This document shows, piece after piece, positions 878 to 64,000 of a stretch of DNA of 64,000 nucleotides (position 1 is the stretch's first letter; each line of letters starts with the position of its first letter). The DNA comes from Eledone cirrhosa (Eukaryota), in contig OZ024740.1 in assembly GCA_964016885.1 (NCBI GenBank), positions 208,878,001 to 208,942,000 on the forward strand. The letters are read 5' to 3'. Position numbers and translations under genes: made by a program. Under the pieces are notes generated by a model, which was given only the letters and a program-made list of their open reading frames with translations, was not told the DNA's origin and made no database searches.

Positions 878-943
878 AAACAAGTACAGAAACTTATTCC
901 TCCTGTGATAGATGTTGTAAAGAAATTGCTTTCTAAAAATCAA
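878..943 (+). CDS. IPO4: IPO4 exon ([22 protein letters not shown])
   Basis: tttcag|...|gtatgt, 66 nt, phase 0/0. Confidence 0.8.
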
Positions 944-3900: not shown

Positions 3901-6900
3901 TTTGCACACAGATGGGACTCTGTTATATTTGCCCAAGGACCAGGTGGTGGCGTTAAACTGGGTGAAGGGTCAAGTCAACCACCCAAGTTTACTGGTTTAG
4001 CCCCTTAGCATTTAAACTGGCTGTACCTGGCCAGAATCCTCTCACTTCTTTCTGTTCAAACTGGCCATAACTGGCTGCTCATACTTATGTTCAAGTATTG
4101 TTCTCAAAATAAATATCAAAATCTCATAGATTCAATATTATGTGAGATAATTATGTAAAATAAAGCCTTTACTGTGAAAATAAAATAGTAAATATAGAGT
4201 AATATAAAAGCTAAAGGGTTGAAGGCTGAAGCTAAAGACTAGAACTGCTTCTTTTTCCAGCTGTCTTCAGAATCACTAAAAGATATGAAGTGTATGGGGG
4301 CTATAGCTATTTGTTTAAACCTCTGTTTATTTATTTTAGACTTTATTGGCCATAAAATGTGTGATCATTATATTTCTGTTTTTTAGTAGTTTATTTCATC
4401 AAGTATTACATTGTATGCCTATGTATGCTCATTCACTCTATCTTTATTTTACTGTTTTTTCATTGATACAAATGAATAGATTATCAGTGTACAGGTCCTA
4501 GTTGTTGATTGAAAAGTTCATTAATCATCATTATTTAAGTTTATCTCTGCCTCTATATGCTGGCATTAGTTAAACAAGATTAATTTTATATACTTTTGGC
4601 AATAATCTAACCGAATGACCTTCCTGTTGCTGACCTTATTTGTGTTTTTTTTAAGTAAGGTAACCAACAGGTTGGGGGGGGGGGGACCCTTCAGTTGTGT
4701 CAAGGACATGACAACCTCCCTAGTGTTGGTGATCTACATGATAAACGCACTCAATACACATTGTAAGGTGGTTGGTGATAGAAAGAGTATCCAGTCATAG
4801 AAAGCTTGCCAAACAAAGGATTGGGGGGACCCTTCAGTTGTATCTAAGACATGACCTCTCTTGTGCTGGTGCCACAATAAAATGCACTTGGTAGAACAAG
4901 GAATATATGTAAGCGAGGTGTGGACCCCTGACCTGACTGAGTGGTTAATAGTACTGACTTGGTCTGTGAAGACCTGTCCAACCCTTGCTAGCAGGGAAAG
5001 TGAATGTTAAATGATGATGATGTTACTGATCTTCACATGTAAACAAACATCACTGGTTGCTCAACTGGCATCAATATGAAGTAAAGACACACATGTAGCC
5101 ATGCCTTTGCATAATAACTATTAAAGAGAAATGAAGAAGGGAATATAGCTATATATGTTTAAGCCCCTTTTGTACTATATTGCCTATGGTTTTCAAACTA
5201 TTTTGAAAACATTCAAGAATGTAGAAGGATTTAATAATATAACAAAATTTCTCATTAATAAGCTGGTGTCTGGAACATAACTTAACAAAATTTCTTACAT
5301 AAAATTATGATAGGTTTTTATATAAATATAAACACTTTAAAATATACACTTTTGTGTTGTAGAATCAGGGGCAGTTTTGTATTAAAAGGGTTAAATGGGA
5401 AAATAACTACCATGATGCAATAATATTTCAACAGTTCATCTAAAAACAATTTTTATCTATTTCAGGCTATTCTGAAAAAGAATTTCAATGTATTGATTAT
5501 GAATGTAATATTTGAAGAGGTTTGTTCTGAAACTGATGATGAGTTTGATCTGTCGGAAGAAAATGATGAAGAAGCAGACACACCGACCAGATATGCTGCA
5601 CAGGTTTGTTCATACAGTTTATCCTGTTGTTGTTTACCTACCTATTGAGAAACTGGGGCACTTTATAGGGGTCAGCACATAATGTGTGTAAGATTACTTG
5701 TAAAATTTTCATTCCTTTCTGGTTTTAGAAATCTTATTGTTTATAGAGGAAAGATTAGATGGTTTTAGTTTACTATTTCATTTGTGAGATTTAATTTTTT
5801 AAAGATAATTGATAATTGCTATATGGTTGACTATATTAGGTGTAGTAGAGAAAGACAGTTTAACATTATTTCTATTTATTACTTTCGATTGCAAGGCACA
5901 TGGCTTAGTGGTTAGAGCATTGGCCTTGCAATCGAAAGGTTGCGAGTTCAATTCTCAGACCGGGTGATGTGTTGTTTCCTTGAGCAAGACACTTTATTTC
6001 ACATTGCTCCAGTTTACTCAGCTGTAGAAATGAGATGATAGGACTGGGGTCCCTATCATTCCACTGCAAAGTGGTCGTGGAGGTGCCACGGCAAAAAAGC
6101 CCCCAGCACTCACTGTAAATGAGGTTGGTGTTAGGAAGGGCATCCAGCTGTAGAAATCGAGCCAGAATCGGTTCTCGTCCCACCCTTGCAATCGGGGAAA
6201 AGCGGACGTAAAATTATGATGATGATGATGATGATGATGATCTATGGTTAGGTGGGAAGTTTTTCTCCAGAATACTAAAAAGAATGTTTGGTATGTTCAA
6301 GGCTATCTGAACTCCAAGTGGAGGATTAAACCAAAGGCATTTTTCCTTCTTAATCTTTTATTTTTGTTGTTACTATTTGTATTATTGTTTAAATATTTTA
6401 CTTGTGCAAGTTTTGTTATCAAGTTTGTTTTGGGATTAATGTTTTTAATATTCTTAGCTGGTTTGTACAATATATTATTTTTATTATTGTTTATATCTTT
6501 GTTTGTCATTACAATTATTCTGAGATGTGCATTTATGTGTAAACTTTATTATAGCCCCTCTTTTCTGTAACTTTATACTTTATTTGGTCCTTGTTACCTG
6601 ATCTCTATAGGACCTCATTATAATTTGCATTTTGATTAAAAACTTCCACATTAGCTGATAGTGTAGTTATTCTATTTGAAATATTATTAACTATTGCTTT
6701 CTTAATACTAGCAGAAAAACCACCCTTTGGGTAGTTTTCTGCTAGCATGTGCAGTGTGCATATTGATATTATACGCAAATATATATACATATAGATATGA
6801 TAATCAAATGAAATCGTAATTGACAATATCCACAGAAATAGAAGAGGATCTGTGTTACACTGATTTATGTAATCAGTAAACCATGATACATTAAAAAAAG

Positions 6901-9900
6901 ACAATATTATATAAACTGCATTAAGAAAAAAATTAGTGACGGAAATATATGAATGTTTATATATGCGATCGCTAACCAGAAGTGTTGACATTTGAAAATT
7001 TTAAAGAAGTGAATCTTAAAATAAGCAACAAAATTATTTATATTTAATCAAGAATTATGAAATTTAGCAGCTAAATTATTCATTCATTATTTATTCAAGG
7101 ATTGGCAGTATCAGTAGAGGGTCGGACGCCACGCTTTCCAGCATAGTTACGTCCCTTTACGATCTGAGTTCAAATCCCGCCGAGGTTGACTTTGCCTTTC
7201 ATCCTTACGGGGTCGATAAAATAAAGTACCAGTAATGCACTGGGTAATTGCTGGCCTTGTACCTAAAGTAGAAACAATTATTTATTCAAAGTAATCCAAC
7301 TTATTTTACAAACAGGATAAAAAAAATATATTCTGGATGCTATCCAGCACTCCTTTCCCTATTATAGTTAAAATTACAGTGGTTAGAAAAATGATGTATA
7401 TAGTAAAGATATTCACCAGGTTTATGGTAAGGCTGGAATGTATAGTTTTACCTCTAAAAGTTAATTATACTCTCATTATTTTCAATAGTAATACTTAAGT
7501 CATTCTTTAAAAATATATGCATACTTTTTCTTTCTCTCTCTCTAAAGCTGCGTTACTCTTTTACCTGTTCCAGCCATGCTGGGGCACCGCCCTTGAGTTA
7601 GCATAATTTTCAAATGTGAAGAGAGCGTTGTCTCTAATACCCCTCCTCCTCCATAGCAGGAAAACTAGCTTTTAGTTTAGTAAAAAGAAATAGTCCAACT
7701 AGGTCTGTAACTTGGGCCGAGTCACTGGATCCCATAGTGACATCAAAATTAAGCCTTTTTTTTTAACCTTCCCTTTCTAGTCCATAAGTTTCAATAATAG
7801 TTTGTTTAGCAGCTAAAATAGTCTCAATTTCTATTTGCTTATATTAGTAAGGTCAGTAGCAAAAGACAATATTTTATCTAGAAGGGAAGGAGAGATTGAA
7901 GCCTAATTTGTGAAACTATTCTATCTTATTTTCTTACTAATTTTACCTATATCAGACGTTGATGGACATAATAATCTTATGGTAGGGTTATTTTGAAAGT
8001 CTTTTTTATGGTCTTTAAGATTAAACCTAGGTGTTTTAAGAGTGTAAGGTTCTGTATACTTTTCTAGGCTAAACTGTTTAGCAATAAGTTTATCCTGCCT
8101 ATTGATATCATCTAAGTTAGTTGGGTATATGTAAATGTATGGGTCAATATTTTGTGTTTGTCTTTATATTTATGTATTAATGTAAAATTATCAATATGGT
8201 ATAAATTTATATATAAATCTATATATGTATATAACTATTTGTTGTGTATGTATTTTTTTCTTAGATTTGTGTGTATATATGTATGTATATATATGTTTGT
8301 GTATGTATGACTAGATGGATGTACATATTTGTATGTGTATAGATATATATTTTTTAATATATTTAATTGTAGTTGTGTATGTACATATACATGTTATGTA
8401 TATATGGGTGTATGTATACGTATTTGTGTACTTATCTGTGCAGGTATATCAATTTTTTATATCAAGGCAATGGTCAGCTTAAGTAAAAGAGACCAAGGTG
8501 ATGCACAGCCATGCCTGTGCCTAAATGTATTGGCTTAATTTTTTTTAATATATATATCATCATCATTATCATCGTTTAACGTCTATCTTCCACGCTAGCA
8601 TGGGTTAGACGGGAGTTGTCCCAATTTGAGGCAAAGTTGGCCGGGTGACCGTATCTGGCAGGTTTTCTACGGCTGGATGCCCTTAACACCAACCACATTT
8701 ACAGTGTGGACTGGGAACTTTTTACCATGTTACCTACACATCCACATTAGTGTGGACTGTGTTGTTTTTTTGTTGTTGTGACACCTACACGATCTCGATC
8801 TCATTACCTCATTTATTTGGACTGGATGTTGTGGTACCAACTTTACAGAGAAAGGGTGATGTTGGTGGGAGTGGGAGGATGGAGTAGGGGTAGTGGATTG
8901 GGGTGTATATTTGGTTAAGAGGTGCCTACTGACTGTAGGTTTCGCTTTGTACATAGGTAAGGCGGGTCTTCTGTATTATATATATCAACATCATCATTGT
9001 TTAATGTCTATCTTCCACACTAGCATGGGTTTAGATGGGAATTGTCCCACTTGAGGCAAGATTGGTTGTCTTGCTCTTATAGGACTGTTTGACAGGTTTT
9101 CTACGGCTGGATGCCCTTATATATATATATATATATTTATTAGAATGATCGAGTATCGAAAAATCGGCGCACGAGTTCACGATAAACAAAATTCGAAATG
9201 AGCGGCAGAGGGTTCCTGTTTTTCTTGAGTACATAACTCAACTTTGTAGTAAATTGTGTTCGTATTAAAAATTGACGTTGTATTTATTCAAAATTGACAT
9301 TCTCTAATGTAAACATTTGCCGTTGGGCTAAATCTGAAATCGATATGATTCTAAGAGGTAAAAAGTTCCTTATATTCTCTTTTTATTAATTCTGATGATT
9401 CTGGTCTTTTATTCATATAATTGATTACGTAATAATTAATGTCTGCTTAAGATTTGGAAGAAACTTGTGTTAATTTATTAAAATGTAATATAATTAACCG
9501 TTTTTGTCTTATTTATCTTTATAAAAACTAGCAGAAAAACCACTCTTCGGGTGGTTTTCTGCTAACATGTGTAGTGTGCATATTGATATTATACGCAAGT
9601 ATATATGCATGTAGATATGATATATCAAATAAAATTGTAATTGACAATATACACAGAAATTGAATGAAGACTGTGTTACACTGTCTTATGTAATCAGTAA
9701 CATAATCCATGATACATTAAAAAAAGACGATATTATATATAAATTGCATTAGGAGAAAATTAGTGACAGAAATATCTGAATGTTTATTTAAGCGATTGCT
9801 AATCGGAAGTGTTGACATTAGAAAATTTTAAAGAAGTTAATCTTAAAATAAGCAACAAAATTATTTATATTTAATCAAGAATAACGAAATTTAGTAGATA

Positions 9901-19620: not shown

Positions 19621-21360
19621 CCAGAAATTAATCAGGTTATTCCATTAGATAGATTTATTTATTTATTTATTTAAATCTTAACATCTTGTAATGATTTAAC
19701 AGAAAATATCTAAAAGCTTGTTAATTTAAATGTTTATAGTACTTTTACTAGTGGACAGATTGTTGTGAAATTTGCAATAAACCATAGTAAGAACGTCAAT
19801 TTCTAATGCAATACAGTCATAGTTACTGTTTTGGACATTTCAAGAATGTTTTGTTAATGCGGCTTTGTGTGGTACAGGACGATAGGGTTAATTTATTGTT
19901 TTGTCAGTGAAGGAAAGGCTGTGTCCATAACTCTGTCAAATGCTTGCAAAAGAATGAACTCTGTTAAAGGCAATCAAGAGCCAAGTGACAGATTAAAACT
20001 ACCCCCCAAGTAGAGCCACTGTTGGATTTGAACTCAGAACACACAAAACAAATATAGGGCATCTCAATCAGCACACTTAACATTTCCACTAATCTAGGTC
20101 CTAAACACCTTATTTTATTGACTCCTAAAAACATGAAAGGCAAATTTAACCATAACAGAATTTAAACTGAGAGCCGAAACAGCTGGAGTAAGGGCAATTT
20201 TCCTGCTAAATCTGTGGTTAGCCTTGTTAGCCTCATGACCAGTTTTGTACTCATCATGGTGTCTTTGTTAAAGTAATGTTTTACATCTAAATCTCTTTCC
20301 TAGTGCTAACTTTTCTAAGTCTCCTTTTATGACACCCTGGGATAGGGTGTACTTATTCTAAACCAGATACATACATTTCAAATATAAACAGGCACAAAAT
20401 ATTCGGGTATGTTGCTCACTGATTTCTTTTCCTTTCTGTAATCATTAGATATGGCCTGTTTGCTTCAATGTCGGTTTTGCTGAAAGACGAAATGGCTAAA
20501 TATCTCCCCGAAATCATTCCTGTTATTCTGAGTTCTGTGAAATCTTCAGAGGGTGTACAGGTAAGTAAAACTATTATTATTGTAATCTGGCAAAGGTTTA
20601 GCTTTGTAACCAGATGGTTGTTTTGTTATCTTATGTAATTGTCAAAACTCTTTTGTCACATTCTGTGACCATATCAATGACTATTTGTTTCTCCGCTGTG
20701 CCTCCTCTTCATTCTGGTCTTGTTTTGTCTACTCCAAAGACAAAGCAAGACCAGAGTGAAGAGAAGGTACAGAGGAACAAATAGTCATTGATGTGTTTAG
20801 CTTTGTATTTACCATAAAAGTGTGGAAATGTTTACCTGGGATTGGGAGACACTAGCTTGAAGGTATTCATTTATTAGCACAAAAGTCTGAAATCAGTCTT
20901 CTCCATATTCTGTTTAAAGTTAATAAGCTGGGGGGATTATTCAAGACATGAGAGTATATATGTTGATTATAGTGCATCTCTCTATCTCTCTCTTTCTCTC
21001 TCTCTCTCTCTCTCGCTCTCTCTCTCCCTCTCTCTCGCTCGCGCTCTCTCTCTCTCACTCTCTCTCTCTCTCTCTCTCTCGCTCTCTCGCTCTCTCTCTC
21101 TCTCTCTATATCTATATATATATATATCTATATATATCATATATATATATATATATATAATCTATATATCTATATATATATATATATATATATATATCTA
21201 TATATATCTATATATATATATCTATATATATATATCTATATATATCTATATATATATATCTATATATATATATATCTATATATATATCTATATATATATA
21301 TATATCTATATATATATCTATATATATATATATCTATATATATATATATCTATATATATA

Positions 21361-21425
<65 letters not shown>

Positions 21426-23264
21426 ATATATATATCTATATATATATCTATATATATATATATATCTATATATATATATATATCTATATATATATATATA
21501 TCTATATATATATATATATCTATATATATATATATATCTATATATATATATATATCTATCTATATATATATATCTATATATATATATCTATATATATATA
21601 TCTATCTATATATATATATCTATCTATATATATATATCTATATATATATATATCTATATATATATATATCTATATATATATATATCTATATATATCTATA
21701 TCTATATCTATATATCTATATCTATATATATATATCTATATCTATATATATATATCTATATATATATATCTATATATATCTATATATATATATATCTATA
21801 TATATATATATATCTATATATATCTATATATATCTATATATATATATATCTATATATCTATATATATATATATATCTATATATATCTATATATATCTATA
21901 TATATATATATCTATCTATATATATATATATATATATCTATATATATATATATCTATATATATATATATCTATATATCTATATATATATATATATCTATA
22001 TATATATATCTATATATATATATATCTATATATCTATATATATATATCTATATATCTATATATCTATATATATATATCTATATATATATCTATATATATA
22101 TCTATATATATATCTATCTATATATATATCTATCTATCTATATATCTATCTATCTATCTATATATATATCTATCTATATATATATCTATCTATATATATA
22201 TATATATATATCTATATATCTATATATATATATATCTATATATATATATCTATATATATATATATCTATATATATATATATCTATATATATATATATATC
22301 TATATATATATATATATCTATATATATATATATATCTATATATATATATATATCTATATATATATATATATATCTATATATATATCTATATATATCTATA
22401 TATCTATATATATATCTATATATATATCTATATATCTATATATATATCTATATATATCTATATATCTATATATATATCTATATATATATATATATATATA
22501 TATATCTATCTATATATATATATATATATCTATCTATATATATATATATATATATATCTATATATATATCTATATATATATCTATATATATATATCTATA
22601 TATCTATATATATATATCTATATATATATCTATATATATATCTATATATATATCTATATATATATCTATATATATATCTATATATATATATCTATATATA
22701 TATATCTATATATATATATATATATATCTATATATATATCTATATATATATCTATATATATATCTATATATATCTATATATATCTATATATATATCTATA
22801 TATATATCTATATATATATCTATATATATATCTATATATATATCTATATATATATCTATATATATATATCTATATATATATCTATATATATATATATATA
22901 TCTATATATATATATATATATATATCTATATATATATATATATATCTATATATATATATATATATCTATATATATATATATATATCTATATATATATATA
23001 TATCTATATATATATATATATCTATATATATATATATATCTATATATATATATATATCTATATATATATATATATCTATATATATATATATATCTATATA
23101 TATATATATATCTATATATATATATATATCTATATATATATATATATATATCTATATATATATATCTATATATATATATATATATATCTATATATATATA
23201 TATATATATCTATATATATATATATATATATCTATATATATATATATATATCTATATATATATA

Positions 23265-23301
<37 letters not shown>

Positions 23302-23502
23302 ATATATATATATATATATATCTATATATATATATATATATCTATATATATATATATATATCTATATATATATATATATATCTATATATATATATATATA
23401 TCTATATATATCTATATATATCTATATATATCTATATATATCTATATATATCTATATATATCTATATATATCTATATATATCTATATATATCTATATATA
23501 TC

Positions 23503-23533
<31 letters not shown>

Positions 23534-26500
23534 AATTTAGCGAGAATCGCATTTCGGCGAGTAGAAATTAGCGAAACGCAACTTCCGTAATGTGTAGACA
23601 AGCGCTCCATGGAAATGAAGAAGATACCAGAGCTATAAACATAAGTTAAAAGGTCATACAAAGCTGAGACGATGGTTAAGAAGCCATTAACCACCAGAGC
23701 CAAATAAGCGAACAAGCTAACGGGTCAAAAACAAAATAAGATATGATTGAAATAGTTACCCGGACCCTTGGGGAAGATGGAATACTCCGAATTTGGGTTT
23801 CTGCAACACCTAAATCAATACTGTCTGCTTATAAAGAATAAGCTTTTGGTATAATGATCGAACAAGGCATCGCTTTCTCAACAGGCATTTTGTTCTTCGT
23901 GGTCCAGAATCTCACGGGTTATGAAAGCACATGTGAGGTTTTAAGGGGAGAAAACCCCTATTTTGGCCAGTGAATTCAGTGTGTGTAGTTATTGCAAAAA
24001 TTTGCAAAAATAGCACAAAACGAATAAAGCTCTCTCTCTATATATATATATATTGCAATATATATATATATATATTGACTCTAATAAATTTGTTTCTAAT
24101 TATACATATAGCTTCAATACAAGGAGGATGTTGATGACATTTCCACTGCCAATTTAATTGACATTGATGATGATGAGACTACTGAAGAAAACTTAGGAGA
24201 GGTTGATACTGAGTCTGAAGAAGATGAAGAAAAATTATATGTGTATGTTTTATTAGTAGTTTTCTTATTCACCAATATTTCACATATAAAATGTTTACAT
24301 TTTATTTCAATTAATAAGTCCACCCCATAAAGTGGTGTTACAACAAAAAGCACCCAGTCCACCCTGTGAGGTGGTAGTTTTGGTGCAACAACAAAAAGCA
24401 CCCAATCCATTCTGTAAAGTGGTAGTGCCGGTGTCATGACAAAAAGCACCCAATCAATCCTGTAAAGTAGTAGTACTGAAATCATGTTAAACTTCTTCCC
24501 AAAACTGTATGAACAATATGTGAACACCTGTCTTGTCTAGCCTCCGTACAATGCAACCCATCTAATCTATGCAAGCATGGAAAATAGACATTAAATGGTG
24601 ATGATGAATCAATTAGATTGATTTGAATTCAACTTTTACTTTAAAATATTTGTAAATGAAGTCGTTTGATTAGTTCATTGTCAAATCATGTTTACCTTGG
24701 AACAAGGTGACTTTGCTAGCATTGGTGCACTCCATAAAGTGGTTGCTATTAGAATGGTGAGAACATAGAGTAGAGCAGACTCTTCAGTCATGTCAAGGCT
24801 CTGACAACTTCCCTAATGCTGATACCTTGATAAAATACACCTAGTAAATTCTGTAAAATGGATGGCATTTGGAAGGGCATCCAGCTATAGATATTTGCCA
24901 AAAAGGATAGAGAGGATTTGTCAGACATAACATTTTCTCTAGTGCTGATGCTATGATAAAATGCATCCAGTACACTGTAAAGTTGTTGGCATTAGGAATG
25001 GCATCCAGTCATTAAAACTAAGCTTAAACTGGAACACTTTGAGCAAGATGGGGCCCCTCAACCTGCCTTGGATGATTGTGGCTCTTACTAATCACTGAGT
25101 GGATCAGCAACACTATCCAACCCATGCTAGTATGGATAACTGGACATAATATGAATAATTTATTATCTTAGCTATAAGAAAGGAGTGTGTGATTGCATCC
25201 AGAATATATTTTTTTACCCCGTTTGTAAAATAAGTTGGATTACTTTGAATAAATAAATAATGAATATTACATAATTTATGTACTAAATTTCTTGGCTGTT
25301 GATTAAATATATTTTATAGCTTATTTAAAGATCTTTAAAATTCACTTCTTTAAAATGTTCAAATGTCAACACTTCCGGTTGGTGGCCGTTATATTGTAAC
25401 ACTTATAATCGCATATATTTCTGTCGCTAAGTTTCTCCTAATGCAGTTTATATATAATATCGTCTTTTTTTAATGTATCATGGATTACGTTACTGATTAC
25501 ATAAGACAGTGTAACATAGACTTCGTTCAATTTCTGTGTATATTGTCAATTACGATTTTATTTGATGTATCATATTTACATGTAAATATACTTGCATATA
25601 ATATCAATATGCACACTACACATACTAGCAGAAAACCACCAGTTGGGTGGTTTTCTGCTAGTTTTGTTAATAAGAGAGCATCACTTTATCATTTGTTTTA
25701 GTTTTACATTTTGTAACTTTAAGTTCTGTTATGTCTGGTTGAAGTCTTGCTTTAGACTAATGGTTCCAAAATTTATTTGTATGAGTTTGAAACATTTTTA
25801 CAGTCACCATCACTTTAAGTTAAAAAAAAAAACAATCAATATGAAAAGATATAGATATATAAGTTGCCTTATTTAATGGCACTCCATAACATTTTCATGG
25901 AACCAACTGTGGGAAACACTAGTGTCAACATAATTTAATACTCCAGTGTCTCCATCTTAATTGGATATTAACTTTTAACTACATTGAACTTATTCTAGTT
26001 ATAGGTACTTTTCTAATTCTATTTATATATAAGGGGTTTATTTTCATCTTAATTTCGTAGCAATATTTGTTGATAGATTTTATTTATTAAACATCTGAGA
26101 CATATATTTTATTTTATTTTATTTTTGTATCTAGAATTCAAGTTGAAAATTCATTTGTTGATGAAAAAGCTGATGCCTGTACTGTTTTGGGAGATCTTGC
26201 TATTAATATTGGGTAAGTTTCTCTTTATTTTCCAATCCAATCCCTTCTCACTCCTTTTGAAAGAACCCCTCCCTGGTTGAACACCACTGCTTTCTGTTTG
26301 GTTTTGGTCATGTCAGAGGTATAACCATACTCACCACACTTGACCAATTGCTGGTTGGTGAGACTATTTAACCCATATTTGGGGTTCTCTGGTCCTCTTT
26401 ATTTTAGTAAACAGAAATTGAATATGTCAGTAAAGACATGATATATATTCCAAAGAAAACTGCAATGGCTCTTTATTCTATCTGGGAAGACTAACTCTGT

Positions 26501-43800: not shown

Positions 43801-44346
43801 ACTGACTGGTGTACTATCTAGGGGGCTGTCTTTTTACACCTATTCACTTAACACCACAGGAAACTAGGATAAGCTCTGGTCTTCATCCTACTCATACAAG
43901 CATGGAGACATGGACATAAAACCAATAATGATGATGATGCTCTTTCCCTGAAAAAAATATTTACAAAACTAATCATTTTGAAATATCATATAAAGTAAGA
44001 AAATCTGTCTGTAATAAACTTACTAGAATGAACAAAATAAAGCAACTTGAACAGAATTATCAATATGGCCTGTCTTGTATCAATACTTGTATCAATACTT
44101 GTATCAATACCGGCAACAACTACTACCTGCTTTTGATGTCACTTGTAAAAAGATATAGTTATATGAACTATAAAAGTCAAATTTGTATTGATATAATGAC
44201 TTTTGGGGTTGTATATTTCCCACTAGGGAAATGAACCCTGACTCAGCATTTTCTGCTGGGGTTTTATAGTTTAAAGCTGATATAAGTTTAGAATCTTTTC
44301 ACAAGCTCTGAAGTTTTTACTTTTATATATATATATATATATAAAT

Positions 44347-44831
44347 AACAAACAAATCGTTTATCGCTCTACATGGCTGAATACAATGAATGTAATCTAA
44401 GTTTTTCAAATATTAATAGTATTTGATTTGTTTGCAATTATGCAAAAAGCCTCTTTTATAAGCCCCTTATTCTCGCTCTTGTGTTGGCATGCAAACAGAA
44501 CTGCAGACACTGTTTCTGGGTGATTACGCTTCATCAGTGCAGTTTACTGCTTACCTGCCAACTGTCAGAGCTAGTGAAAATATATTATTTTCTAGAAATA
44601 TACAGTGAGTGCTGGCCAGATTTGCATATTAGCAGACTGGCTGATCAGTCAGAGCTGCATATTAGCAGACCCACTGATCAGCCAGATTTGCATATCACCT
44701 GATAGGCCAGTCAGTTTCATGTATACTAGCGGTTAATGGCCAGCTTTGCCACATTCAATAAACAAACAAATCGTTTATCGCTCTACATGGCTGAATACAA
44801 TAAATGTAATCGGAGTTTTTCGAATATTAAT
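44347..44831 (-). mobile_element. 414-nt terminally redundant unit (retrozyme or Penelope pLTR-like)
   Basis: 71-bp direct repeats at 44347-44417 and 44761-44831 (4 mismatches), internal hammerhead motif, (TA)n flanks. Confidence 0.6.
44499..44544 (-). ncRNA. Degenerate type I minimal hammerhead ribozyme
   Basis: Minus strand AACTGCA-CTGATGA-agcgtaatcaccca-GAAAC-agt-GTC-TGCAGTT: 7-bp stem I, intact core boxes, GUC cleavage triplet; stem II weakened. Confidence 0.68.
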
Positions 44832-46299
44832 GTATATATATATCTATATAAGCCTGTGCTTCCACCAAGAAGTTGGTGATCTGTAGTTGTTGCATGCTGT
44901 ATGAAGCATGTGTGAAACTCTGTCAATTGACTATTTCTCTGATGTTGATGACATAGAATTTGGTGTTATATGCCCACAGAACCTGCTGGCTAGTTAATTG
45001 GTATTCTAATCAGGAGTCCAACCCATTTTATGCATTGTTGAGCTATGAATTGAAGCACTAAATCATCTGCCTAATGTCTTTATTTTTCTGGGAGTTTCTG
45101 GTTTTACCAGCTGCTCAACAGAGAAATCTTATCTCACAGGTTGTGAGTGTTTTGCTCCAGGCTTTGAGATTCTCAATCTAGCTACTGGTAAGTGAAGTTG
45201 CTGCCAACAACGATTGAAGTGATTAGTCATTGGTCTCCATGTGTATAGTTAGATACTTCAAGAGAGGTGCTAGTTGATAAACTGACAAAGTTTGCCTTCT
45301 GGTCTATAGTTCTGTCAATCTGCCCATTCTCAATAAATATATACACAATAGAAGCTTCAAGTTAGGGAATTTAAAGAAAGTAAAACTGACATAAAAGAAG
45401 GAACTCTAAGGTTGTTAGAAAACCATTATTATTGTTCTCCGGAAATTTTACAAGTTATTTCTAAGATTTTTTTTATTTTTATGTGCTTTGAAAAAAAAAA
45501 ACAGCCAACCAACTAATGTCTAGAAACTGTCCAGGTTCAGCAATATTTTCTGTCTTTATGCATCCTCCTCTAGCCCCACTCCAGTATTACTGCAACAGAA
45601 TTAAAGATACTGTTGATATATCCTTATAAAATATTTGTCTTCGGGAAACATGGAATATCCATAACTAACAATTCACCCAAAATACTGCTTAATGTGTGCG
45701 ATGTTGCTCTCTTCTGAGTTTCTTTTGTTATAAAAAAACAACACATATTGCTGTCTCATAGACTTGTTTCAGATTTTATAATATACTGTATTTTTCAGGT
45801 TATAAGATAATCCCTTAATTTGAAGGTACTTGTATATGTACACACATACAACTCTGCATTAATATTCAGTAAAGTAAGGTGAAAGTTATAACATGATAGC
45901 TAGCTAGCTCATATTTTGGAGGTTATAAAATTCAATAATGTATATGATGCACTGATATTTTGAAGAAAAAAACTTGAGTATTAAATGATTTTTATTACCC
46001 CAAAATTCAGCATGTGGTGTTCTAAATTAAAAAGAACTATTTTTGCTGCATTAGCTAGCAATTATCATATATCTACAAATGCTTTCACCCAGATCAAGTA
46101 AGTCTACCTGTAATTGATCCAATTCTGGGGGGTGGGGGGGGTCATGTAATAAGTAATAATTTAAATAGTTGTGAATTTTAGAAGAAAAATATCAATATTT
46201 GTATTAATTAGACATGAAAAATTAAAATAAAATAAACTATGCGTGCTTATTTAGATATAGCTACATTTATTATTATTATTATTATAGTCCTACATTATA

Positions 46300-49703: not shown

Positions 49704-51157
49704 ATTATTATTATTATTATAAAGTGCTCAGGTGCACTACAACTCGTCAAAGATGCATGCATGTATAGTACATAGAATAATATACAAGTGAATAGTGTAT
49801 GAGTCATGATATACATGTGTGTATGTCTATGGAGGGGGAACATTAGGTGTAGTGTTGGCGAATCTTGGGAAGCATGGAGGTTTTAAAGGATGCAGTGTCT
49901 TGACAGATAACAACTGATGCAGGTAGTTTGTTCCATGCTTCAGCAACTCTGAGCGCAAAAAAATGTTTCCGAAAGTCATGGGAACTGTGCTGTTGTCTGA
50001 CTTTGTGGGCATGCCCACGTGTGTTAGACACATAGAAAAAAAAAAAAAGGTACTCAGGGTTGTTGTTGGCAAGATGGTTAATAATTTTGTGGGTGTTTAC
50101 CAAGTCAGTTGCCAGGCGTCGGAGCTTCAATGTATCCATGCCCAGGGAAGCAAGGCGTTCAGAGTATGGTAGATGCCTGATGGAGGGTATTCGCTTGGTT
50201 GCACATCTCTGAACAGTTTCCAGGCGGTTCTGCGCAAGATAGGGATTCCAGACTGGTGATGCAAATTCTAAGTGTGGCCGCACCATAGCCATGTACAGCC
50301 TTAAATAGATAGCTGGAGAGCGGCTGACAAAGGTCTTGCTGAGTGATGCTAAGACACCCTCGGCCCTCTTGACAATTTTAGAGACCTGCTTCGTCCAACG
50401 CAAATCGCTGCTGACCGTAATGCCCAGGTCACGTTCACAAGAAGACTTCTTGATATTAGTGCTGTGGAGGGAGTATGTGGACGCTGGTTTTTTACTCCTG
50501 AAATGCATGGTGGTGCACTTGTCCACAGCTAGCTTGAGTTGCCAGTCTGAGATGCATTGTGTCCAGGTCAGACTGCAAGCAAGATCTATAGTATTCAGAA
50601 TCTGTCCTTTTTATCTCAAGGTACAGCTTGATGTCATCTGCGTACTTTTAGTACTGTGGCATTCTTTAAGTTGGCATCTATGTCAATAATATATGCCAAG
50701 AACAGATCCCTGTGGTACACCAGATGACATCTCATATGGTGAGGAATGCTGTCCCAGAACTGACTACCTCTCTTCGACTGAGAATGAAGGACTCCAACCA
50801 GTTAAAAAGATCATCCTTCACACCCATTACAGAGAGTTTTGCCATAAGCCTTTTGTGTGGCACAGAATTGAAAGCTTTCGCAAAGTCAAGGTAAACAACA
50901 ACCACCCATGAGACGCCATCAGTGATCCGGGTGATGTCTTCAAGAAACTCGATAAGTTGATCACAGCAGCTGGAGTTGGGGATAAATCCAAATTGCGAGG
51001 GCCGGATAAGACTGAGAGTTCCAGAAGTTCTAAAGTGTTTCTCTGACACAGGATTCCATCAGTTTGGCTATGCAACTCGTAAGACTGACTGGACGATAGT
51101 TCACAGGTGATGTGCGGCCACCCTTTTTGAACAGAGGAATGACACTGGCAGTTTTTT
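49704..51157 (-). mobile_element. 5'-truncated CR1-group LINE (RT pseudogene plus 3' UTR)
   Basis: VIPLFKKG..NYRPVSLT, YLDFAKAFNSVPH, GVPQGSVLG, YADD, RPHLEFASPVWNP, TRGH; frameshifted; (TAA)n tail. Confidence 0.9.
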
Positions 51158-54674: not shown

Positions 54675-57600
54675 CATACATAGATACATACATACATGAT
54701 GGCTGCCCCCTCGTTATCGAGTATGGCCATTGCACGAAAAAAAAAGAAAATAATAATAATAATAATAACAACAATTTTATATATATATATATGCACACAC
54801 ACACACACGATAGCAACTAACAGCGCTGCGATCGTATGTGGCTTTTTTAGCCCAGCCAATGATCTAAAATATCTTTCACGGAGTTGGCAACCAAAACATT
54901 CACTGGCAGTAGCCGGCTGTGGTTGGAGTACATGTACTTTTGCATGTTGTTTGGCAAGCATGATGAGTAGCATCTCCAACAGCAGCCTGGTAGTCAACCA
55001 CTGGTCTCACTTTATGACTGCAAAGATGACTTTCGAATCCAGCTTTGCTGAGGAAGAGTCTCGCACAGATGCTGCTTGTTAGCGCCATAGGAGGACCTTC
55101 GCTGTCTGGAAATGCAACAGTAATGCCTTTCCTCACATCCCTCTTTACTTTCTCGTATGCGATTCGAGATGCCTCAAAGGCAACTTTCCCCTCATATACA
55201 GTCTTTCTCCATTTATTACGATCAGCAGCAACATTTTCCCATGTATCAGCAGAGATGTTAGCGTCTTTCAAAGAGGCTTTCAACGAATCCTTATACCTCT
55301 TTTTTGGTTTATGTGGAGGTCGTTTTCCTTGAACTAACTTTCCATAAAAGAGTTGTTTTGGTATTCTAGAATCCTTCATCCTGGCAAGGTGACCACTCCA
55401 ACGGAGTCTTTGCTTAAGCACAAGAACCTCTATACTGTCACACAGAGAGCTTTTCAAAATCTCGACATCACTGATGTGATCCCTCCAGTCAACGCCATGG
55501 ATCCGTCTGGGACACATCTGATGGAAACGCTCCAATTGTTTAAGGTGGTGTCGATATGTGACACAAGTCTCGTAGGCATAAAGAAGAGAAGAGAGCACAT
55601 ATGCCAGGTACCTTTGTCTTCTTGCATATGTCTCGCCGAACCCAGAGTCGCCTTTCTAGCTTTCCGAAAGCATCATTTCCTAAACCTGAGTGGGATTTCA
55701 TTATCAAGGTTGCTGTATCGATTGACAGTGCTTCCCAGGAAGACAAACTGATCAACCACTCCAAGTCGTTTACCATACTATTAGATATTTGGCTCCCTGT
55801 ACTGCTTACCAGTGGCAGGTTGGTACATGATGACGGTTTTCTTGAGACTGACAGTCAATCCTAGGGCAATGCAAGCATCAGAAAATGTGCTGCATATCAC
55901 TCTCTGTGTGCACTACAAGATCGCAATCATCTGCATACAAGAGGTCTCTTATGATTGATGTAAATACTTTTGTTTTTGCAGCAAAGCGCCTGATGTTAAA
56001 TATGCTGCCTGAGGTTCGATATCGGATGTAAACACCGTGCTCGCAATTCCTGAATGCTATATAGAAAACCATTGCAAAGTATATGGCAAACAGGGTCGGT
56101 GCTGGAATATCCCCCTGTTTTACTCCATTTTTTACTGAGATAGGCTCCGACACCTTACCTCCGACATTAACCCAAGCCTTCATGTCGTCATGGAAAGACC
56201 TAACCAAATCAAGGACCTTATCAGGGCAACCAAGTTTCTGGAAAACCTTCCACAATGCATTTCTGTTAACAGTATCGAACGATTTTGTCAGATCGACAAA
56301 AACCTAATACAGATCCAAACCTTGTTCCATGCACTTCTCCTGGAGCTGTCTAGCTGAGAAGATCATATCAGTAGTGCCGCGTCCAGCATGAAAACAGATT
56401 GACTTTCAGGAAGAACACAATCTGCAATGTGTGTCAGCAGACGGTCCAGAAGCACCCTACATAGAATTTTTCCTACGACAGAAAGCAATGATATACCTCT
56501 GTAGTTTCCACAATCATTATTGTTACCCTTTCCCTTATACAACACCACCATTACTGCATCTCTCCAGTCCTCAGGTACGGATTCACTAGCCCATATCCTG
56601 CCAAACAAAGAGTGAAGATGTTGCAGAAGTTTCTCACTACCATATTGTAGGAACTCTGCATGTATGCCATCCATACCTGGAGACCTTTCACTGTTCAGCT
56701 TCGAGATAGCTACTGCAACCTCCACAAGCGTCGGTGATTCTGCGAGAGGTTTTTCTGGAATGAGATTGAGGAAATCTTCATTGACGACAGACGGCTGATT
56801 CAAAAGTTCATCAAAGTGCTCTCGCCACCTTCGTAGAATTCTTTGTGAGTCACGAAGAAGTTCCTTGCCACCCTTGCTGCGAAGCGGTGTCAACAGAGAA
56901 GAAGACGGTTCATAAACTTCACGCAAGAGACTGTACAACAGCTTTGTGTTATTGGAATCTGATGCAGCTTTTATCTCATCAGCCTTCTCACTCCACCACT
57001 TATCCTTCATCTGAGAAAGATTCCGCCTAACACATGATTTCACATCCTTGGGTACCTTATGCAACATATTCTTCTCCTGTGATTTTGCTGTCAAGTAGCG
57101 TGACAGAGCACGCCTCTTATCAGCCAACAAGTCTTCTATATGTACATCATTCTCATTAAACCAGTCTTAATGTTTTCTCTGCACCAATCCCAGAACACGC
57201 CTGCCTACATCATAAACCGACATTTTAAGGGTCGGCCAATCCTCACCAAGATCTGCAACATGCATCTCTTCTCGCAATGTCCTCTTCACATTTTTATCTC
57301 TAAGATGAGCAGCATTCAATCTTCTGGGCAGGGTGACACCAGGAGCCCGGATTTTACGTTTAGTGATTAGTTTCATTTTTGCGCGTTCCAGAAGGTGGTC
57401 CGTCCAGCACTCAACTCCACGAAGAGCACGAACACACTGCACATCCTGTCTGTCACGCATCCAAACAAGGACGTCGTCCAAAAGTCCAAAAGATGCCATT
57501 TCTTAGATGCAGGATGCATCCATGCGGTCTTAAATTTGTTCTTTTGCTGGAACATGATGTTGGTAACACACAGATCCAGTTCCACACACATCTGCAGCAG

Positions 57601-58215
57601 GAGCATACCATTGTTGTTACACTTTCCCACCCCATGCCTTCCGATTACATTCCATGTGTTAAAATCCCTACCCACTCTAGCATTAAAGTCACCAAGCACG
57701 ATGACCTTGTATGCCTGAGGGATAATTCTTAAAACACATTTCAAGGCATGGTAAAAGGACACTTTTTCTTCATCGACAGAATTCATAGTTGGAGCATACA
57801 CACTCACCAGGGTCGCATATCTTCCTTTGTCCAGAGGAATTCTCATGGACATAAGACGCTCACTAATCCCCACGGGGAATTCTTTTAATTTATCCAAAAG
57901 AGCAGTCTTAACAGCAAATGCTACCCCAGCCTCTCTTCTGGTTCCTTCATCTCTTCATTTCCAGAAGAATGTATATTCTCCACAAAATTCTGTAAGATGA
58001 CCATTTTCAGATAACCTCGTCTCAGATAAAGCTACGATGTTGAGATCGTAACGTCGAAGCTCCTTTGCAACAAGAGCGTTCAGGATGTTCCAAGGAATCC
58101 CTGTCAAGCAGCGTCCGTACGTTCCAGCAGCCAATATTAAATGCCTTGTTTGGTTCTATTACAGTAGCACGATGACGAGCGGGCCCAGGCTGTAATACCC
58201 TGGGGCCCCTGCCCT
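54675..58215 (-). mobile_element. RTE-clade LINE, near-complete but disrupted APE-RT ORF
   Basis: IGCWNVRTL, SVYAPT, LGDFNARVG, NYRGISLLS, GVKQG, LLYADD, QRLRWSGHLARM, RIPKQLFYG; several frameshifts and stops. Confidence 0.92.
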
Positions 58216-58338: not shown

Positions 58339-61300
58339 TCTTTATTAACCACAAGGGTTTACATAAAGTAGACATTAAGGACAGTACAAGACAATACAGG
58401 ACGGTACAAATGGGTATTTCTGCGTGTAAAAAAACAAAAACAGAGGATGTAACAAAAAAATAACAATGAAAAATTCCCCAATACGGGGGAGACTTCCGAG
58501 GGACATTCGTGGAGAAAGCCCATTAAAAAGCCACAGTGACCCTGACTACCAGGGCAAGTGCCCTCTCCCAGATTTCCACCTTTAATTTACAGACACATAC
58601 TCAGAGTAGGCCCATTCACTCGGGACATTCTTGCTTCTCTCACCCATCTTTCAACAAAATGCTGGGAAGAGAGCACTTCCCTCTCTACCCTGATTTTCCT
58701 TTTCAAATGAAATTTGAAAAAGTCAATCAGGGCATCACCGAAGAGGTAAGTGCTCGTCTTCAGCCCTTTCAAACGTGTCCACCATACTATCTCTTTCGCC
58801 ATGGCCACCAGACAGATAAAAACTTCCTGTCCTTCCCGGCTAAAGGAAGAGGGCGGGGCAATCCTCACGATGAACTCAGCTGATAGCTGGATCCGTCCTA
58901 CACGCGACAGCAGGTGTTAGACATAAACCCACAAGTCAGCAATGCTCGGACACTGGACGAGTGCGTGCAGGACGGTTTCGTCGCCCTGCGCGCATCTCGG
59001 ACATGCTCTATTTTTCTCTATTGCTAAAGCCTTACTAAACCTAATGGACTCTATCCTAATCGCTCTTTTCAGAGCAAACCACCATTTGTTGTTGACGATG
59101 GCCCCCGTCAACGCCCGCTTAACTAGTTCGCTAATCCGGTCTCTGTAGGCCTTGCGCGCTGGTAAGGACGTGTTTAGCTTCCAGTAGCCGGGTCCTCGTC
59201 TATGAAGCCTATCTAAGTCAAGCTACACAGATCACGAATTTGTGGTCCTTGTAGCTGACTATCTTGAATTGTGGACAGCCTATGCTAGACCTATCTATTT
59301 CCCTACAAAATACTCTATCTAGATATGATCTAGATGACTCTATGCGGTTTGTCCAAGTCCATTCGGGAAATCCAATCGGTATCTGTCAGACAGTTGAAAC
59401 CGTTTGAGCAGGTTTGCGAGGCTTTTATGCCCTCCTCCCCTATCGGCTAATCCCACACAGTCCCAGCGTGCATCTAAGATCCCGTTCCAGTCGCCCACTA
59501 ACACTAAAGAGCGGGACGCTCCAAGAAAGGTCTCCAGACGCCGGAAGAAATCAGGCTGCCCTGCTCCTGTCGGGGCATAGACGGCCACTAGCCTGAAAAC
59601 TTGCCCGTCTCCGCTGGTCACGTCCAGCACCACCAACTTACCTTCTGGGTCCAGGAAGATGGCCCGTATGGCGAGATCCAAACATCTCCGAAAAAGCACA
59701 GCAACTCCTCCCCCGATCCAGGACGGCTGGGAGATGCGTACACATCGTAGCCGCCGAAGATCGGTGCGAAGGCCCGTGCTTCGGAGATTCTGGTCTCGCT
59801 GGTGGCCATCACATCTATGTTTAGTGACCTGAAGTCGTTGAGCAGGTGGCCCAGCTTCCATGACGACCCGAGGCCACGCGCATTTATGCTGCCTCTTCTG
59901 AGTGAGGTCATGTTGAAAAGGAGTGGAAAAAGATGGGAAAGACCACTTACCTTACTTCTCGTAGAGGGAGGATGGTTTTTTCCATCCTTCTCACTACTTG
60001 TGGCCTCCTCCGGAAGGATGTCCTTATAAATCCTCCTGGAGATTGTTTGTCGGAAGTCTCCGATGTCCTTGGGGAATTTTTGTTTTAGTGTCGTGTGCGT
60101 TTTATGTCTGATGCGAGTGATTTGTATGTGTGGAGGTGGTGTGAATTTTTGGTGTGTTGTGTAGTCTTTTTCTGTGATGCTGGTGTTGTGTTGGATGGAG
60201 TGTAATAATTGGTTATTGTTCAAATTTAATGCTGTGTAGTGTGGGTATCGTTTTGGTTGTTTTGTTTTGTTTGCGTTTGTTGTGAGTTTGTTTCTGTTTC
60301 GCTTTTTGGTGACTTTTGTGGTATTGGTGATGGTGGTGTTGGGGTTAATGAATGTGATGGTGTTGCTGTTTGTGGTGATGGGGGTTGGTGATGCTGGTGT
60401 GGATGGTGGTATAGCTGTCTTAACATTTTTGTTTGTTTGTTTCCCCTGCGTTTTGTTTTTGGAGGGGGAAGGAAGAGGATTTTTTTCTTTTTGGGGTTCT
60501 TTTTCTTTTTTTCTGATACCATTTCCCACTCCTCGTCGTCACAATCTGCCTCCAGTTGCGATAGATCGGGGAGTGGAAAATCCTCCACAGGCGTTGGTTT
60601 TGGTTGTGGCGTGGTGAATGGTGGAGGCGCTGGTGCTAATTCTGGCGCGGTGGGTGGGGGTGGTGTTGGTTTTGCCACTGATGCTGGGGTTGTTGCTGCT
60701 ACAGTTACTTCTGTTGTTGCTGTCATTTCTGCTGCTGGTGGTGTTGATGGTTGAGTCACTGGGGTGGGTAAGAGAGGTGGCCTCAACTTTTTAGCTTGAG
60801 GGCAGAAAGCCTTTAGGTTGGTTCCTTCACCACAAACGACACACCTAGACCTTCCCTCAACGATTACAGTGAGGTCTATCACCTCTGGAATTTCCTCAAT
60901 GTTTTTTGGTCCGCTTGGATCAGGAGCTTCATCCCAGATCCGGACCAGTTCTCCTGCTTTTCTTTTGTTACTTCAATTATTTTCGTGTTGACCTCGATGC
61001 CGGCGAGGACGGCAGCCATTAGCCAGGGAATTTCGGTGGCCGGTGGAACGTGGGTCACCCTGATCTTCACGAGTCTCTGACCACAATAGCTTGGGACGAG
61101 TGTGAAGTCGTGGAGTGCTCTCTGGCTTCCTGTGGTGTTCCAAAGAACACGTCCACGGTTCCATATTTCTGCCCACGTCTGATGTGAGTTTTTTTCGCCC
61201 ACCCATGTCCCAAAGCTTTTTGTATTTGGGACTCGGATGCCCGTTCCACTCGGCGTGATTTTGTGTTTATCGTCCGATATGACACGGTGCATAGGCGCCG

Positions 61301-62147
61301 ATTCTCCATTTTATTAGGTGTGGGGGTGGGGTGGCGGGGTGAGGCTGACCCTGTACCCATCTTTTTTTACCATTCGCTTGGCTTCATTTAATTCATCCTG
61401 GCTTACCTCGATTGTTTCGCTTTTCTTGGCTGCTTTGGAAAACGACACATTTTTGCGCTGGTGTTGATGTTGTTGTTGTTATTCTCATTGTTGTTGTTGT
61501 TGTTGCTGTTGTTGTTATTGTTATATTTGTTATTGTTATTTTTAGTTTCAGTTGTGGTGGTGGTGGTGGTGGTGTCAGTGGTGTTCGGCGTGGAAGAGTC
61601 GATTCTGGGTGAATCCATTTCGATGTCACGAGATAATAATTTTTTGGGGGGGTTTCTGTTGTCGCTGTTTTGGTGGTGGTGGTGGTGGTATCAGTGGTGT
61701 TCGTTTTTCTTTTTGACATTGTGGTGGTGGGGGTGGCGGCTTTAACACCTGTAGACATTGGTAATGGTGGGAAATCCATGTCTTTATGCGGCAAATCTAA
61801 ATAATTGAGACTGCTATTAATTATATTTTCAGTGTTGGCAACCGTGGCAAGGCTTACAATGGTGTTGTTGGTGGTGGTGGTTGGGAGGCGGAGGGGGAGA
61901 GGTCTTTTAAAAACAGGAGATTTGTCGTCCATGTTTTTTTTTCAAAGAAATATTTTGTTTGATAAGTAAAAGTTTAAATTTTGGGTTCAAGGGCCCAATA
62001 TTTTTTTTGTGTCCTTTTCAGAAAGCAATATATGTGAACTTATAAACACATAACAACAAATATTTTCCATAACATGGCAATTTGAAACAACTGAAAACAA
62101 CAAACCTTTGCGGAGCTCAAGATAATAGGTTTCCTACGTAGGTCGCC
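58307..62147 (-). mobile_element. L1/Tx1-type LINE, internally deleted (ORF1 + endonuclease + C-terminal Zn motif, no RT)
   Basis: Disrupted ORF1 from 61932 with a CxxC knuckle relic; ORF2 from 59911 (SINARGL, VAVYAP, VGDWN, YLDR, DHK, GPGYWKLN) fused near 59005 to CPRC..ETVLHALVQC; AATAAA plus (ATT)n tail. Confidence 0.88.
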
Positions 62148-62188
<41 letters not shown>

Positions 62189-62210
62189 TTTTTTTTATTG
62201 TTTATTTATT

Positions 62211-62212
<2 letters not shown>

Positions 62213-62261
<49 letters not shown>

Positions 62262-64000
62262 TTTTCTTTATTAACCACAAGGGTTTACATAAAGTAGACA
62301 TTAAGGACAGTGCAGGACAATATAGGACGGTACAAATGGGCATTTCTGCGTGTAAAAAAACAAAAACAGAGGATGTAACAAAAAAATAACAATGAAAAAT
62401 TCCCCAATAGGGGGGAGACTTCGGAGGGACATTTGTGAAGAAAGCCCAGTAAAAGGCCACAGTGACCCTGACCACCAGGGCAAGTGCCCTCTCCCAGTTT
62501 TCCACCTGTTGGGAAGTGCTCTCTTCCCAACAAAATGCTGGGAAGAGAGCACTTCCCTCTCTACTCTGATTTTCCTTTTCAAATGAAATTTGAAAAAGTC
62601 AATCAGGGCATCACCGAAGAGGTAAGTGCTCGTCTTCAGCCCTTTCAAACGTGTCCACCATACTATCTCTTTCGCCATGGCCACCAGACAGATAAAAACT
62701 GCCTGCCCTTCCCGGCTAAAGGAAGAGGGCGGGGCAATCCTCACAATGGACTCAGATGATAGCCGGATCCGTCCTGCACGCGACAGCAAGTGTTCGACAT
62801 AAACCCACAAGTCAGCAATTTTCGGACACTGGACGAGTGCGTGCAGGACGGTTTCGTCGCCCTGCGCGCATCTCGGACATGCCCGGCTGACGGCACCTCC
62901 ATTCCTGTAGAGTTTATCCCGAACTGGCAAGGCTCCTCGGTAGCACTGCCAGGCCAGGGATTTCTGGAAGTTGTCCATAGGCCCCGGCCCGAAAGTTCTT
63001 CCGAAGAGAATAGCTAGTTGATTTTCGTCGACGCCTAGAGTTTCCCCAAGTACGTCGTCGCTCTTCCCCTCCACTAATCCTCTATAGAACGCCGAGGTGG
63101 AGTTTCCACCGATCACATTGCCCGATTGGTCGAGGGCTGTGAGCACCTGAAAACATTCCAGTCTCCAAGCGCTCCCTCTCGGTCTTCGCTTGACCCAGGA
63201 CTGCAGCTCCGTCAAGGAAACGAGCTGAGGAAAAACGCGTCTAGCAAACGGCGACCACACCTGATCACCGTTGAGGAAGAGGTGGAGATGTAGCCAGAGC
63301 GCGTGCCTGCGCATCATCAGCCACGGCATGCCCAGCTCTCCACGTAGCGGGTGTTGACAACAGATGGACTGCCTGACCATCGGAGCGCGTCCCTTCCACA
63401 AAAAGCGAAAGAGCAAACGCTCCAGCGCAGTCAGGCGAGGCTTAGGACAAAGTACGACGGTCAGGCGGTAGCAGATGACAGACACGATGTACGCGTTAGC
63501 CACCTCCGCTCGACCTTTCAGGAATAGCTTCCTCTCCGCCCATTTCTGGCTGAGAGAAGCCACCCTGCTCGTTACCTCGTCCCAGTTTTTGTCCGTCTGG
63601 AGGTCCGGACCGAACCAGACCCCTAGCAATTTAACCGGTCCGTCCGTCCAGCGTCCGACGACGCTTTTGGACGGCATGGATCTACCTCTCCAGGTGCCGA
63701 GCTGCAGGCCCACTGACTTTTCCTGGTTGATCATTGCTCCTGTCAACGCTTCGTATTCTCTTAGTGTAGTACCGATCGCCTCGATGTGTTTGGCGTTCGA
63801 CACCACTACGGTGACATCGTCCGCATATGCTGACACGGATCTTCCGCATCCTAGTTCGCGCGGGACGCCCCTCAACGTCTCCAGTTTGTGCAGTAATGGC
63901 TCGAGAGTCAATACGTACAAGAAGGACGAGAGGGAGACATCCTTGGCGGACCGAGCGCATGATGTTGAACGGTTCCGAAAGGTGACCGTTCACTCTCACC
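62213..64000 (-). mobile_element. Second L1/Tx1-type copy, 3' half of ORF2 (RT and C-terminus); continues beyond the window
   Basis: RSVRQGC, AYADDV, LLGVWF, CPRC..ETVLHALVQC; 3' UTR near-identical to 58336-58580. Confidence 0.92.

Follow-up and report, generated by a model that had tools for sequence, protein, structure and literature searches.

Dispersed Hammerhead Repeats without ORFs and Their Penelope-Like Footprint at (TA)n Tracts

Introduction

A stretch of 485 bases in the genome of Eledone cirrhosa raises a simple question: How did a sequence that carries a hammerhead motif and ends by repeating its own beginning come to lie between tracts of TA? The stretch was noticed in a window of 64,000 nt, the whole piece of DNA analysed here, by a first-pass annotation which read it as a candidate retrozyme or Penelope-type element copied from a small circular RNA. 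Elements of this class are already published, and Li et al. (2026, bioRxiv 10.64898/2026.07.22.740005) have argued that those of the retrozyme type derive from Penelope-like elements (PLEs). The footprint that PLEs leave is described as combining internal starts of reverse transcription downstream of the hammerhead, a tail of 30-40 nt and AT-rich nicking (Frangieh et al. 2024, PMC11167929) with 5'-truncated arms in inverted orientation and insertion at (TA)n (Craig et al. 2021, PMC8557442). What we add is the integration footprint of a family of such units and the compensatory evidence from its sister.

Results

The Insertion in the Window

The stretch belongs to a dispersed repeat family without coding capacity, of which it represents 1.16 units (table 1). 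Its 71-nt direct repeats are 94% identical and 414 nt apart, with TA on both sides, and the minus strand holds a type I hammerhead layout with a predicted cut between 44506 and 44505, all as first described; nor does any ORF of at least 150 aa overlap the insertion, in keeping with the earlier statement that none was convincing. The value of 414 nt, proposed as the unit length, holds for the spacing in this copy, while the family unit measures 438 nt, about 24 nt having been lost here.

Table 1. Features of the insertion, in positions of the window
Feature	Position	Strand	Remarks
Complete insertion of 1.16 units (a unit and its tail)	44345..44831	-	sense is the minus strand; 7.7% from the 30-copy majority
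5' copy of the 71-nt repeat, unit start	44761..44831	-	5' end fixed by truncation
71-nt repeat, 3' copy (tail)	44347..44417	-	its end falls at unit positions 59-82, the most distal of the 3'-end clusters in the family
Three repeats of 33 nt, all containing an octamer-type motif	44615..44715	-	ATGCAAAT twice plus one variant
Type I hammerhead: stem I, core, A, stem II, A, GAAAC, stem III, GUC	44499..44544	-	decayed; stem I 5' arm 44544-44538, CUGAUGA 44537-44531, GAAAC 44516-44512, GUC 44508-44506, stem I 3' arm 44505-44499
Extended stem I around the hammerhead	44486..44559	-	44559-44547 pairs with 44498-44486
(TA)n tract, 3' end of insertion	44323..44346	.	probable target site
TA-rich tract, 5' junction	44832..44850	.	

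The single hammerhead core of this copy is damaged by a G>C change at 44528 in stem II, where the majority base was confirmed in DNA contigs from three runs of one sample, and by the loss of 3 nt from stem III, after 44511; a further deletion of 18 nt lies downstream of the hammerhead. The decay postulated in the first-pass annotation is therefore real, as is the stem III deletion, although only one of the two stem II substitutions that it assumed was found. Its guesses for the intact sequence, TGGG-loop-CCCA and a stem III of its own, are replaced by a majority with GGGU/ACCC between two A's and a stem III of ACAUUAGUGU. With one damaged hammerhead, the window copy is likely to be a dead end. 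The motif in the 33-nt repeats we take to be an octamer, and the region may have served as a promoter. A splice-donor-like CAG/GT occurs at 44555/44554 on the minus strand, inside the extended stem I. Elsewhere in the window there are a TA-rich microsatellite of about 2.6 kb (20878-23571) and LINE-like RT fragments (49843-50610, 54900-57954 and 59340-63989).

A Family of Thousands of Copies

When the 3.0-Gb genome of the same species was searched with the window unit, at least 57 matches were obtained from the 40 scored among 4,114 candidates. Exact matches numbered 301 for a 26-mer of the hammerhead core, 1,217 for an 18-mer upstream of the core and 2,514 for a looser pattern running from stem II to GUC, with none for any of the reversed controls; the first and last of these counts show that the hammerhead layout is not due to chance. 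The unit is thus multi-copy, as the genome-wide BLAST and consensus proposed at the outset were meant to establish, with thousands of copies. The 30 best copies yield a 438-nt majority (mean distance 6.1%, GC 0.38) without ORF. In this majority the hammerhead reads stem I ACUGYA/UGCAGU, CUGAUGA, A, stem II GGGU/ACCC with a loop of 3 or 4 nt, A, GAAAC, AUUAGU and GUC, and stem III forms a 10-nt self-complementary sequence. The Rfam search that had been suggested recognized a hammerhead neither in the window copy (E<=10) nor in four intact family copies (E<=5), so alignment was used to judge the motif.

Copy anatomy was studied in 209 distinct loci out of the thousands in the family, namely the 30 best BLAST matches, which are biased to long copies, and pattern matches taken in list order, mostly from two contigs (C1 and C2) and with duplicates removed. 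In 165 of these loci the 3' end lies between positions 20 and 82 of the next unit, a zone of 63 nt or 14% of the unit, where the ends form clusters at 20-36 (78 loci), 48-56 (27) and 59-82 (58, blurred by the alignment of TA); a (TA)n lies within 35 nt of the 3' end in 151 loci. The 5' ends are variable, and 78 loci have an inverted 5' arm. The copies are not randomly permuted, circular permutation being a point that the first-pass annotation had proposed to test, and their terminal redundancy ends at fixed points next to (TA)n. As to tandem copies, named in the same proposal, 72 loci exceed one unit and 7 span two cores (L171, L225 and L246 among them); the longest copy has 1.73 units and a full array of two or more units is present in 0 of 209. 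All 41 copies that extend upstream enter another unit. One locus (L269:1442-1896) contains a minisatellite of about ten copies that arose by expansion of the octamer-bearing block of 33 nt.

Sister Family B and the Conservation of the Hammerhead

Through locus L160 we found a sister family, B, with a 343-nt unit about 70% identical to that of the window's family, A, over 276 nt and with 1,620 candidates (loci L284-L313, for example L295:1528-1613, minus). Family B has the same tail region and one 33-nt octamer block, against three in the window copy, and its hammerhead combines a U3-A8 core with the perfect 10-nt palindromic stem III ACAAUAUUGU. Between the families, changes on both sides of a pair have occurred in three pairs of stem I, in the tertiary pair (C3-G8 to U3-A8) and in one pair of stem III (ACAUUAGUGU to ACAAUAUUGU), amounting to about five events between two families and not to 77 independent counts. 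Of the points named beforehand for checking, stem II is paired in the majority sequence (GGGU/ACCC), and stem I shows compensatory changes. Across 67 sequences (49 of A, 17 of B and the window copy, omitting 15 loci whose mismatches to the anchor exceeded 5 and another 7 because of indels), 92% of the hammerhead cells are paired, versus 83.6% after shuffling and 25-49% in slid controls. Within family A, common variants at the paired positions 279, 281, 288, 292, 341 and 342 are one-sided and keep the pairing. Judged from these alignments, the compensatory changes argue for past selection on dimer cleavage. The swap of C3-G8 for U3-A8 is already on record among natural hammerheads (Cervera & de la Pena 2014, PMC4209133), and action as a dimer through a palindromic helix III has likewise been published (PMC4209133; Weinberg 2019).

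The core has a peculiarity common to both families: an A after A9 and another before G12 flank stem II, so that two A's face each other where helix II, of 3-4 bp, begins, beside a helix I of 6-8 bp plus its extension. A canonical base before G12 was considered as the family state and rejected, for only 7 matches have a base other than A there, against 301 or more with A. An A on both sides of stem II was not found in the portion of the literature on PLE hammerhead variants that was searched; it may already be known. The G10.1-C11.1 pair, from which the A-A opposition departs, is called highly conserved (PMC4209133).

Unrelated repeats of the genome also contain hammerhead-like motifs (L090:700-778, minus; L097:3045-3116; L070, L084 and L047), that of L090 having a U-U mismatch at the base of stem II.

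Predicted Folding of the RNA

In circular folds of the monomer the z score is -17.0 for the majority and -10.4 without its 33-nt repeat block, -7.6 for family B and -6.3 for the window unit; retrozyme RNAs are reported to be strongly self-paired (Cervera & de la Pena 2020, PMC7229834). The local fold of lowest energy pairs the core with stem III and so hides it (-26.7 vs -20.5 kcal/mol), while a stem III homoduplex is predicted at -8.8 kcal/mol, values that would fit a hammerhead switched off in the monomer and on in the dimer. Cleavage may nevertheless be weak, because the A-A opposition departs from G10.1-C11.1 and the core would be buried in the monomer. Among Xenopus retrozyme dimers, eight of nine are reported not to have cleaved (Li et al. 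2026, bioRxiv 10.64898/2026.07.22.740005).

The Search for a Penelope Partner

A tblastn search with PLE proteins, using probes from the same genome, covered 152 + 59 loci. Only 1 of these 211 (L054, the GIY-YIG endonuclease end) was joined at its 5' end to a PLE ORF in sense orientation; the PLE in question has a different pLTR, and 29 further members of its family were examined, of which 0 have the unit. In the loci covered, the unit is therefore not an ordinary pLTR always fixed to a Penelope ORF, the outcome that the first-pass annotation had set against its own proposal. The same annotation had pointed to a Penelope RT relic at 6243-8130 as candidate mobilizing machinery. The relic is real, a degraded PLE RT with tblastn matches at 6422-7902 on the minus strand, and a relative has the CxCx5C linker of the Hydra clade; support for a role as partner was not obtained, the unit being a terminal repeat in 0 of 30 related loci, which yielded one separate copy on the opposite strand. 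No parent PLE sharing the unit was found among the three PLE groups examined, and a covariance model run over 60 sources retrieved only family copies and two unrelated hammerheads.

PLEs that target TA and have hammerheads of their own do occur in this genome. At L189 the tail of a family copy is the insertion point of a near-intact Neptune-like PLE (at about 640-5400 from that copy), which bears two repeats containing hammerheads and ends in (TA)n. Pieces of this Neptune-like family lie beyond the TA tail in L008, L023, L214 and L230, in sense after the tail in the last three; they were considered as the parent and rejected, as the family has its own hammerhead repeat, and we read them as later insertions. 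Fragments of Hydra-like PLE ORFs are found inverted directly at the 5' junction in L167, L252 and L258, with no continuation on the other side; they could reflect a shared insertion event or chance, their frequency being about what their abundance in the flanks predicts. A further PLE family, encountered at L062-L090 (741 candidates), has a GIY-YIG end, its own hammerhead, a splice-donor-like site after it and a TA-flanked 3' end.

A SINE Hotspot and a Possible Intron

At about 29 of the 209 loci (for example L029, L037 and L258) a SINE with an ATT-type 3' end, presumably a tRNA-SINE, occupies one site of the unit junction. The 32 insertions differ in their 5' truncation, each having its own, so that they are independent and mark a strong sequence-specific hotspot; a SINE-chimera subfamily was rejected on the same grounds. 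This SINE is also present at 7100-7280 of the window.

Two loci, L191 (1495-1530) and L198, lack exactly a 57-nt stretch from GT to AG that holds the whole hammerhead, and L191 retains it in its inverted arm. Splicing as the norm was rejected, with 2 intron-less copies against 1,217. For the two losses themselves, splicing and RT slippage or microhomology deletion are equal rivals, since a 4-nt GCAG repeat stands at both ends of the stretch and 8-nt deletions between such repeats were also found.

Discussion

The best explanation of these observations is that the family consists of non-autonomous PLEs, or non-LTR retrozymes, which probably were pasted in trans into (TA)n by a Penelope RT-endonuclease. 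This model is based upon the size of the family, its ORF-less tandem unit, the fixed 3' ends beside (TA)n, the variable and often inverted 5' ends and the compensatory conservation of the hammerhead in two families, and it upholds the earlier view of the window copy as a decayed Penelope-type, hammerhead-bearing element without ORF. The 71-nt redundancy, first taken as a sign of copying from circular RNA, is best read as a Penelope tail and does not prove a circle, because the 3' ends, the (TA)n and the inverted arms match the published footprint of PLEs. A source copy of more than one unit would be transcribed from the octamer-bearing region; two hammerheads might then pair via their self-complementary stem III and cut after GUC; and a helper protein would nick (TA)n and start reverse transcription internally, some 140-190 nt downstream of the cut site, generating the tail (44347..44417 in the window, the putative start region). 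The RT would pass the position of the cut, which implies a template either uncleaved or re-ligated and fits a ligated circle as well as an uncleaved multimer. Among the 41 upstream-reaching copies, 4 have 5' ends at 326-334 and 14 at or upstream of 326, with no pile-up at the cut site or at a start site.

A ligated circle is a plausible template because it would regenerate copies of more than one unit, and we give this step a tentative, less than even, chance. The corresponding account of a true circular retrozyme, in which dimers self-cleave, the 438-nt monomer is ligated and RT runs more than one turn round it, seems to us a serious possibility that falls short of being probable. Circles have been shown for repeats of mussel, coral and axolotl (PMC7229834); here, the 72 loci exceeding one unit, the passage of RT across the cut position and a stem I predicted to hold together the two ends of a cleaved monomer speak for it, as would the renewal of tandem length that successive subfamilies would have needed. 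A linear multimer that was never cleaved accounts just as well, however, for the unbroken junctions and the fixed position of the 3' ends; the longest copy stops short of two full units, and the candidate core has its A-A opposition. Repeats within one copy share 5.5% of rare variants versus 1.3% between random loci, a small excess resting on 12 sites (8 loci left out) and seen likewise in inverted arms (8.8%), so that it is not decisive as a test for circles.

The competing account is of a linear non-autonomous PLE, in which a few tandem master loci produce uncleaved transcripts and the hammerhead, inherited from a parental pLTR, has no role in transposition. We regard it as possible, if somewhat doubtful. 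It agrees with the 5' ends not stopping at the cut site, with the predicted inactive fold of the monomer, with a PLE insertion in vitro that did not need cleavage (Frangieh et al. 2024, PMC11167929) and with the non-autonomous PLEs having head-to-tail pLTRs described by Craig et al. (2021, PMC8557442). Yet compensation of both the tertiary pair and the palindrome in two ORF-less families would imply selection on catalysis, and a master array of at least two full units was seen at none of the 209 loci. That the units are merely solo pLTRs of an autonomous Penelope family, with ORF-bearing copies outside the sample, is largely refuted and very improbable: the anatomy is pLTR-like (putative promoter, donor site, hammerhead, tail) and the 209 loci, mostly from two contigs, stand for thousands, but the 41 upstream-extending loci enter another unit instead of an ORF, and the one sense 5' PLE ORF among 211 loci belongs to a PLE with a different pLTR. 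An unlikely variant would place a dimer-acting hammerhead of new geometry (an A on either side of stem II), kept by two ORF-less families through compensatory change, within a 57-nt spliceosomal intron; splicing and self-cleavage would then compete over the fate of the RNA, and a circle, where one formed, would be copied at its tail sites by a Penelope enzyme targeting (TA)n. If true, this would provide direct genomic evidence that animal retrozyme circles integrate via Penelope internal priming.

For the preferred reading of non-autonomous elements inserted in trans, the significance lies in hundreds of loci at which a hammerhead unit without ORF bears every mark of Penelope integration, and in a sister family whose natural compensatory changes support the catalytic tertiary pair and the dimer pairing. 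Families A and B together constitute a ready test system for retrozyme insertion and for cleavage by Penelope hammerheads in vivo.

In relation to known systems, the family resembles metazoan non-LTR retrozymes (PMC7229834; bioRxiv 10.64898/2026.07.22.740005) in its non-coding unit, within their range of 150-450 nt, with a type I hammerhead, its GC of 38% (below 45-50% in retrozymes), its strong self-pairing and the coexistence of PLEs; a mollusc example of these comprises about 5,000 hammerheads in repeats of 350-390 bp (same sources). It differs from them as they are presented there in that its copies are dispersed, 5'-truncated and shorter than two units, and that they show the tails of PLEs as well as inverted arms. 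Described retrozyme arrays range from dimers to a 62-mer (PMC7229834), against 1.73 units at most here, and the two cores by which Li et al. (bioRxiv 10.64898/2026.07.22.740005) call a copy "active" are present in 7 of 209 loci. The hammerhead shares with PLE variants (PMC4209133) the palindromic helix III, the extra base after A9 and, in family B, the U3-A8 pair; unlike theirs, it has helices of canonical size (6 or more and 3-4 bp) and a second A before G12, and so departs from the minimal PLE form as outlined there, with helix II of 7-8 bp, helix I of 4-5 bp and G10.1-C11.1. Chlamys MRC1 (PMC8557442) is likewise an ORF-less PLE derivative with pLTR-like redundancy and head-to-tail copies, although the Chlamys elements, according to the same account, lack canonical hammerheads and have 3' sequences in common with known autonomous partners; for our family no such partner was found among the three PLE groups. 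An autonomous PLE has an RT and GIY-YIG ORF between pLTRs, an arrangement foreign to the family, in which the single ORF among 211 loci goes with another pLTR; and in contrast to PLEs as described (PMC11167929; PMC8557442), the unit has no RT-endonuclease ORF and repeats head to tail on itself. Its insertions, by comparison, resemble those of PLE pLTRs: 3' ends clustered downstream of the hammerhead with an optional tail of 30-40 nt (PMC11167929; PMC8557442), and an inverted 5'-truncated arm at AT-rich or (TA)n targets, as in the (TA)n-targeting Hydra and Neptune clades (PMC8557442).
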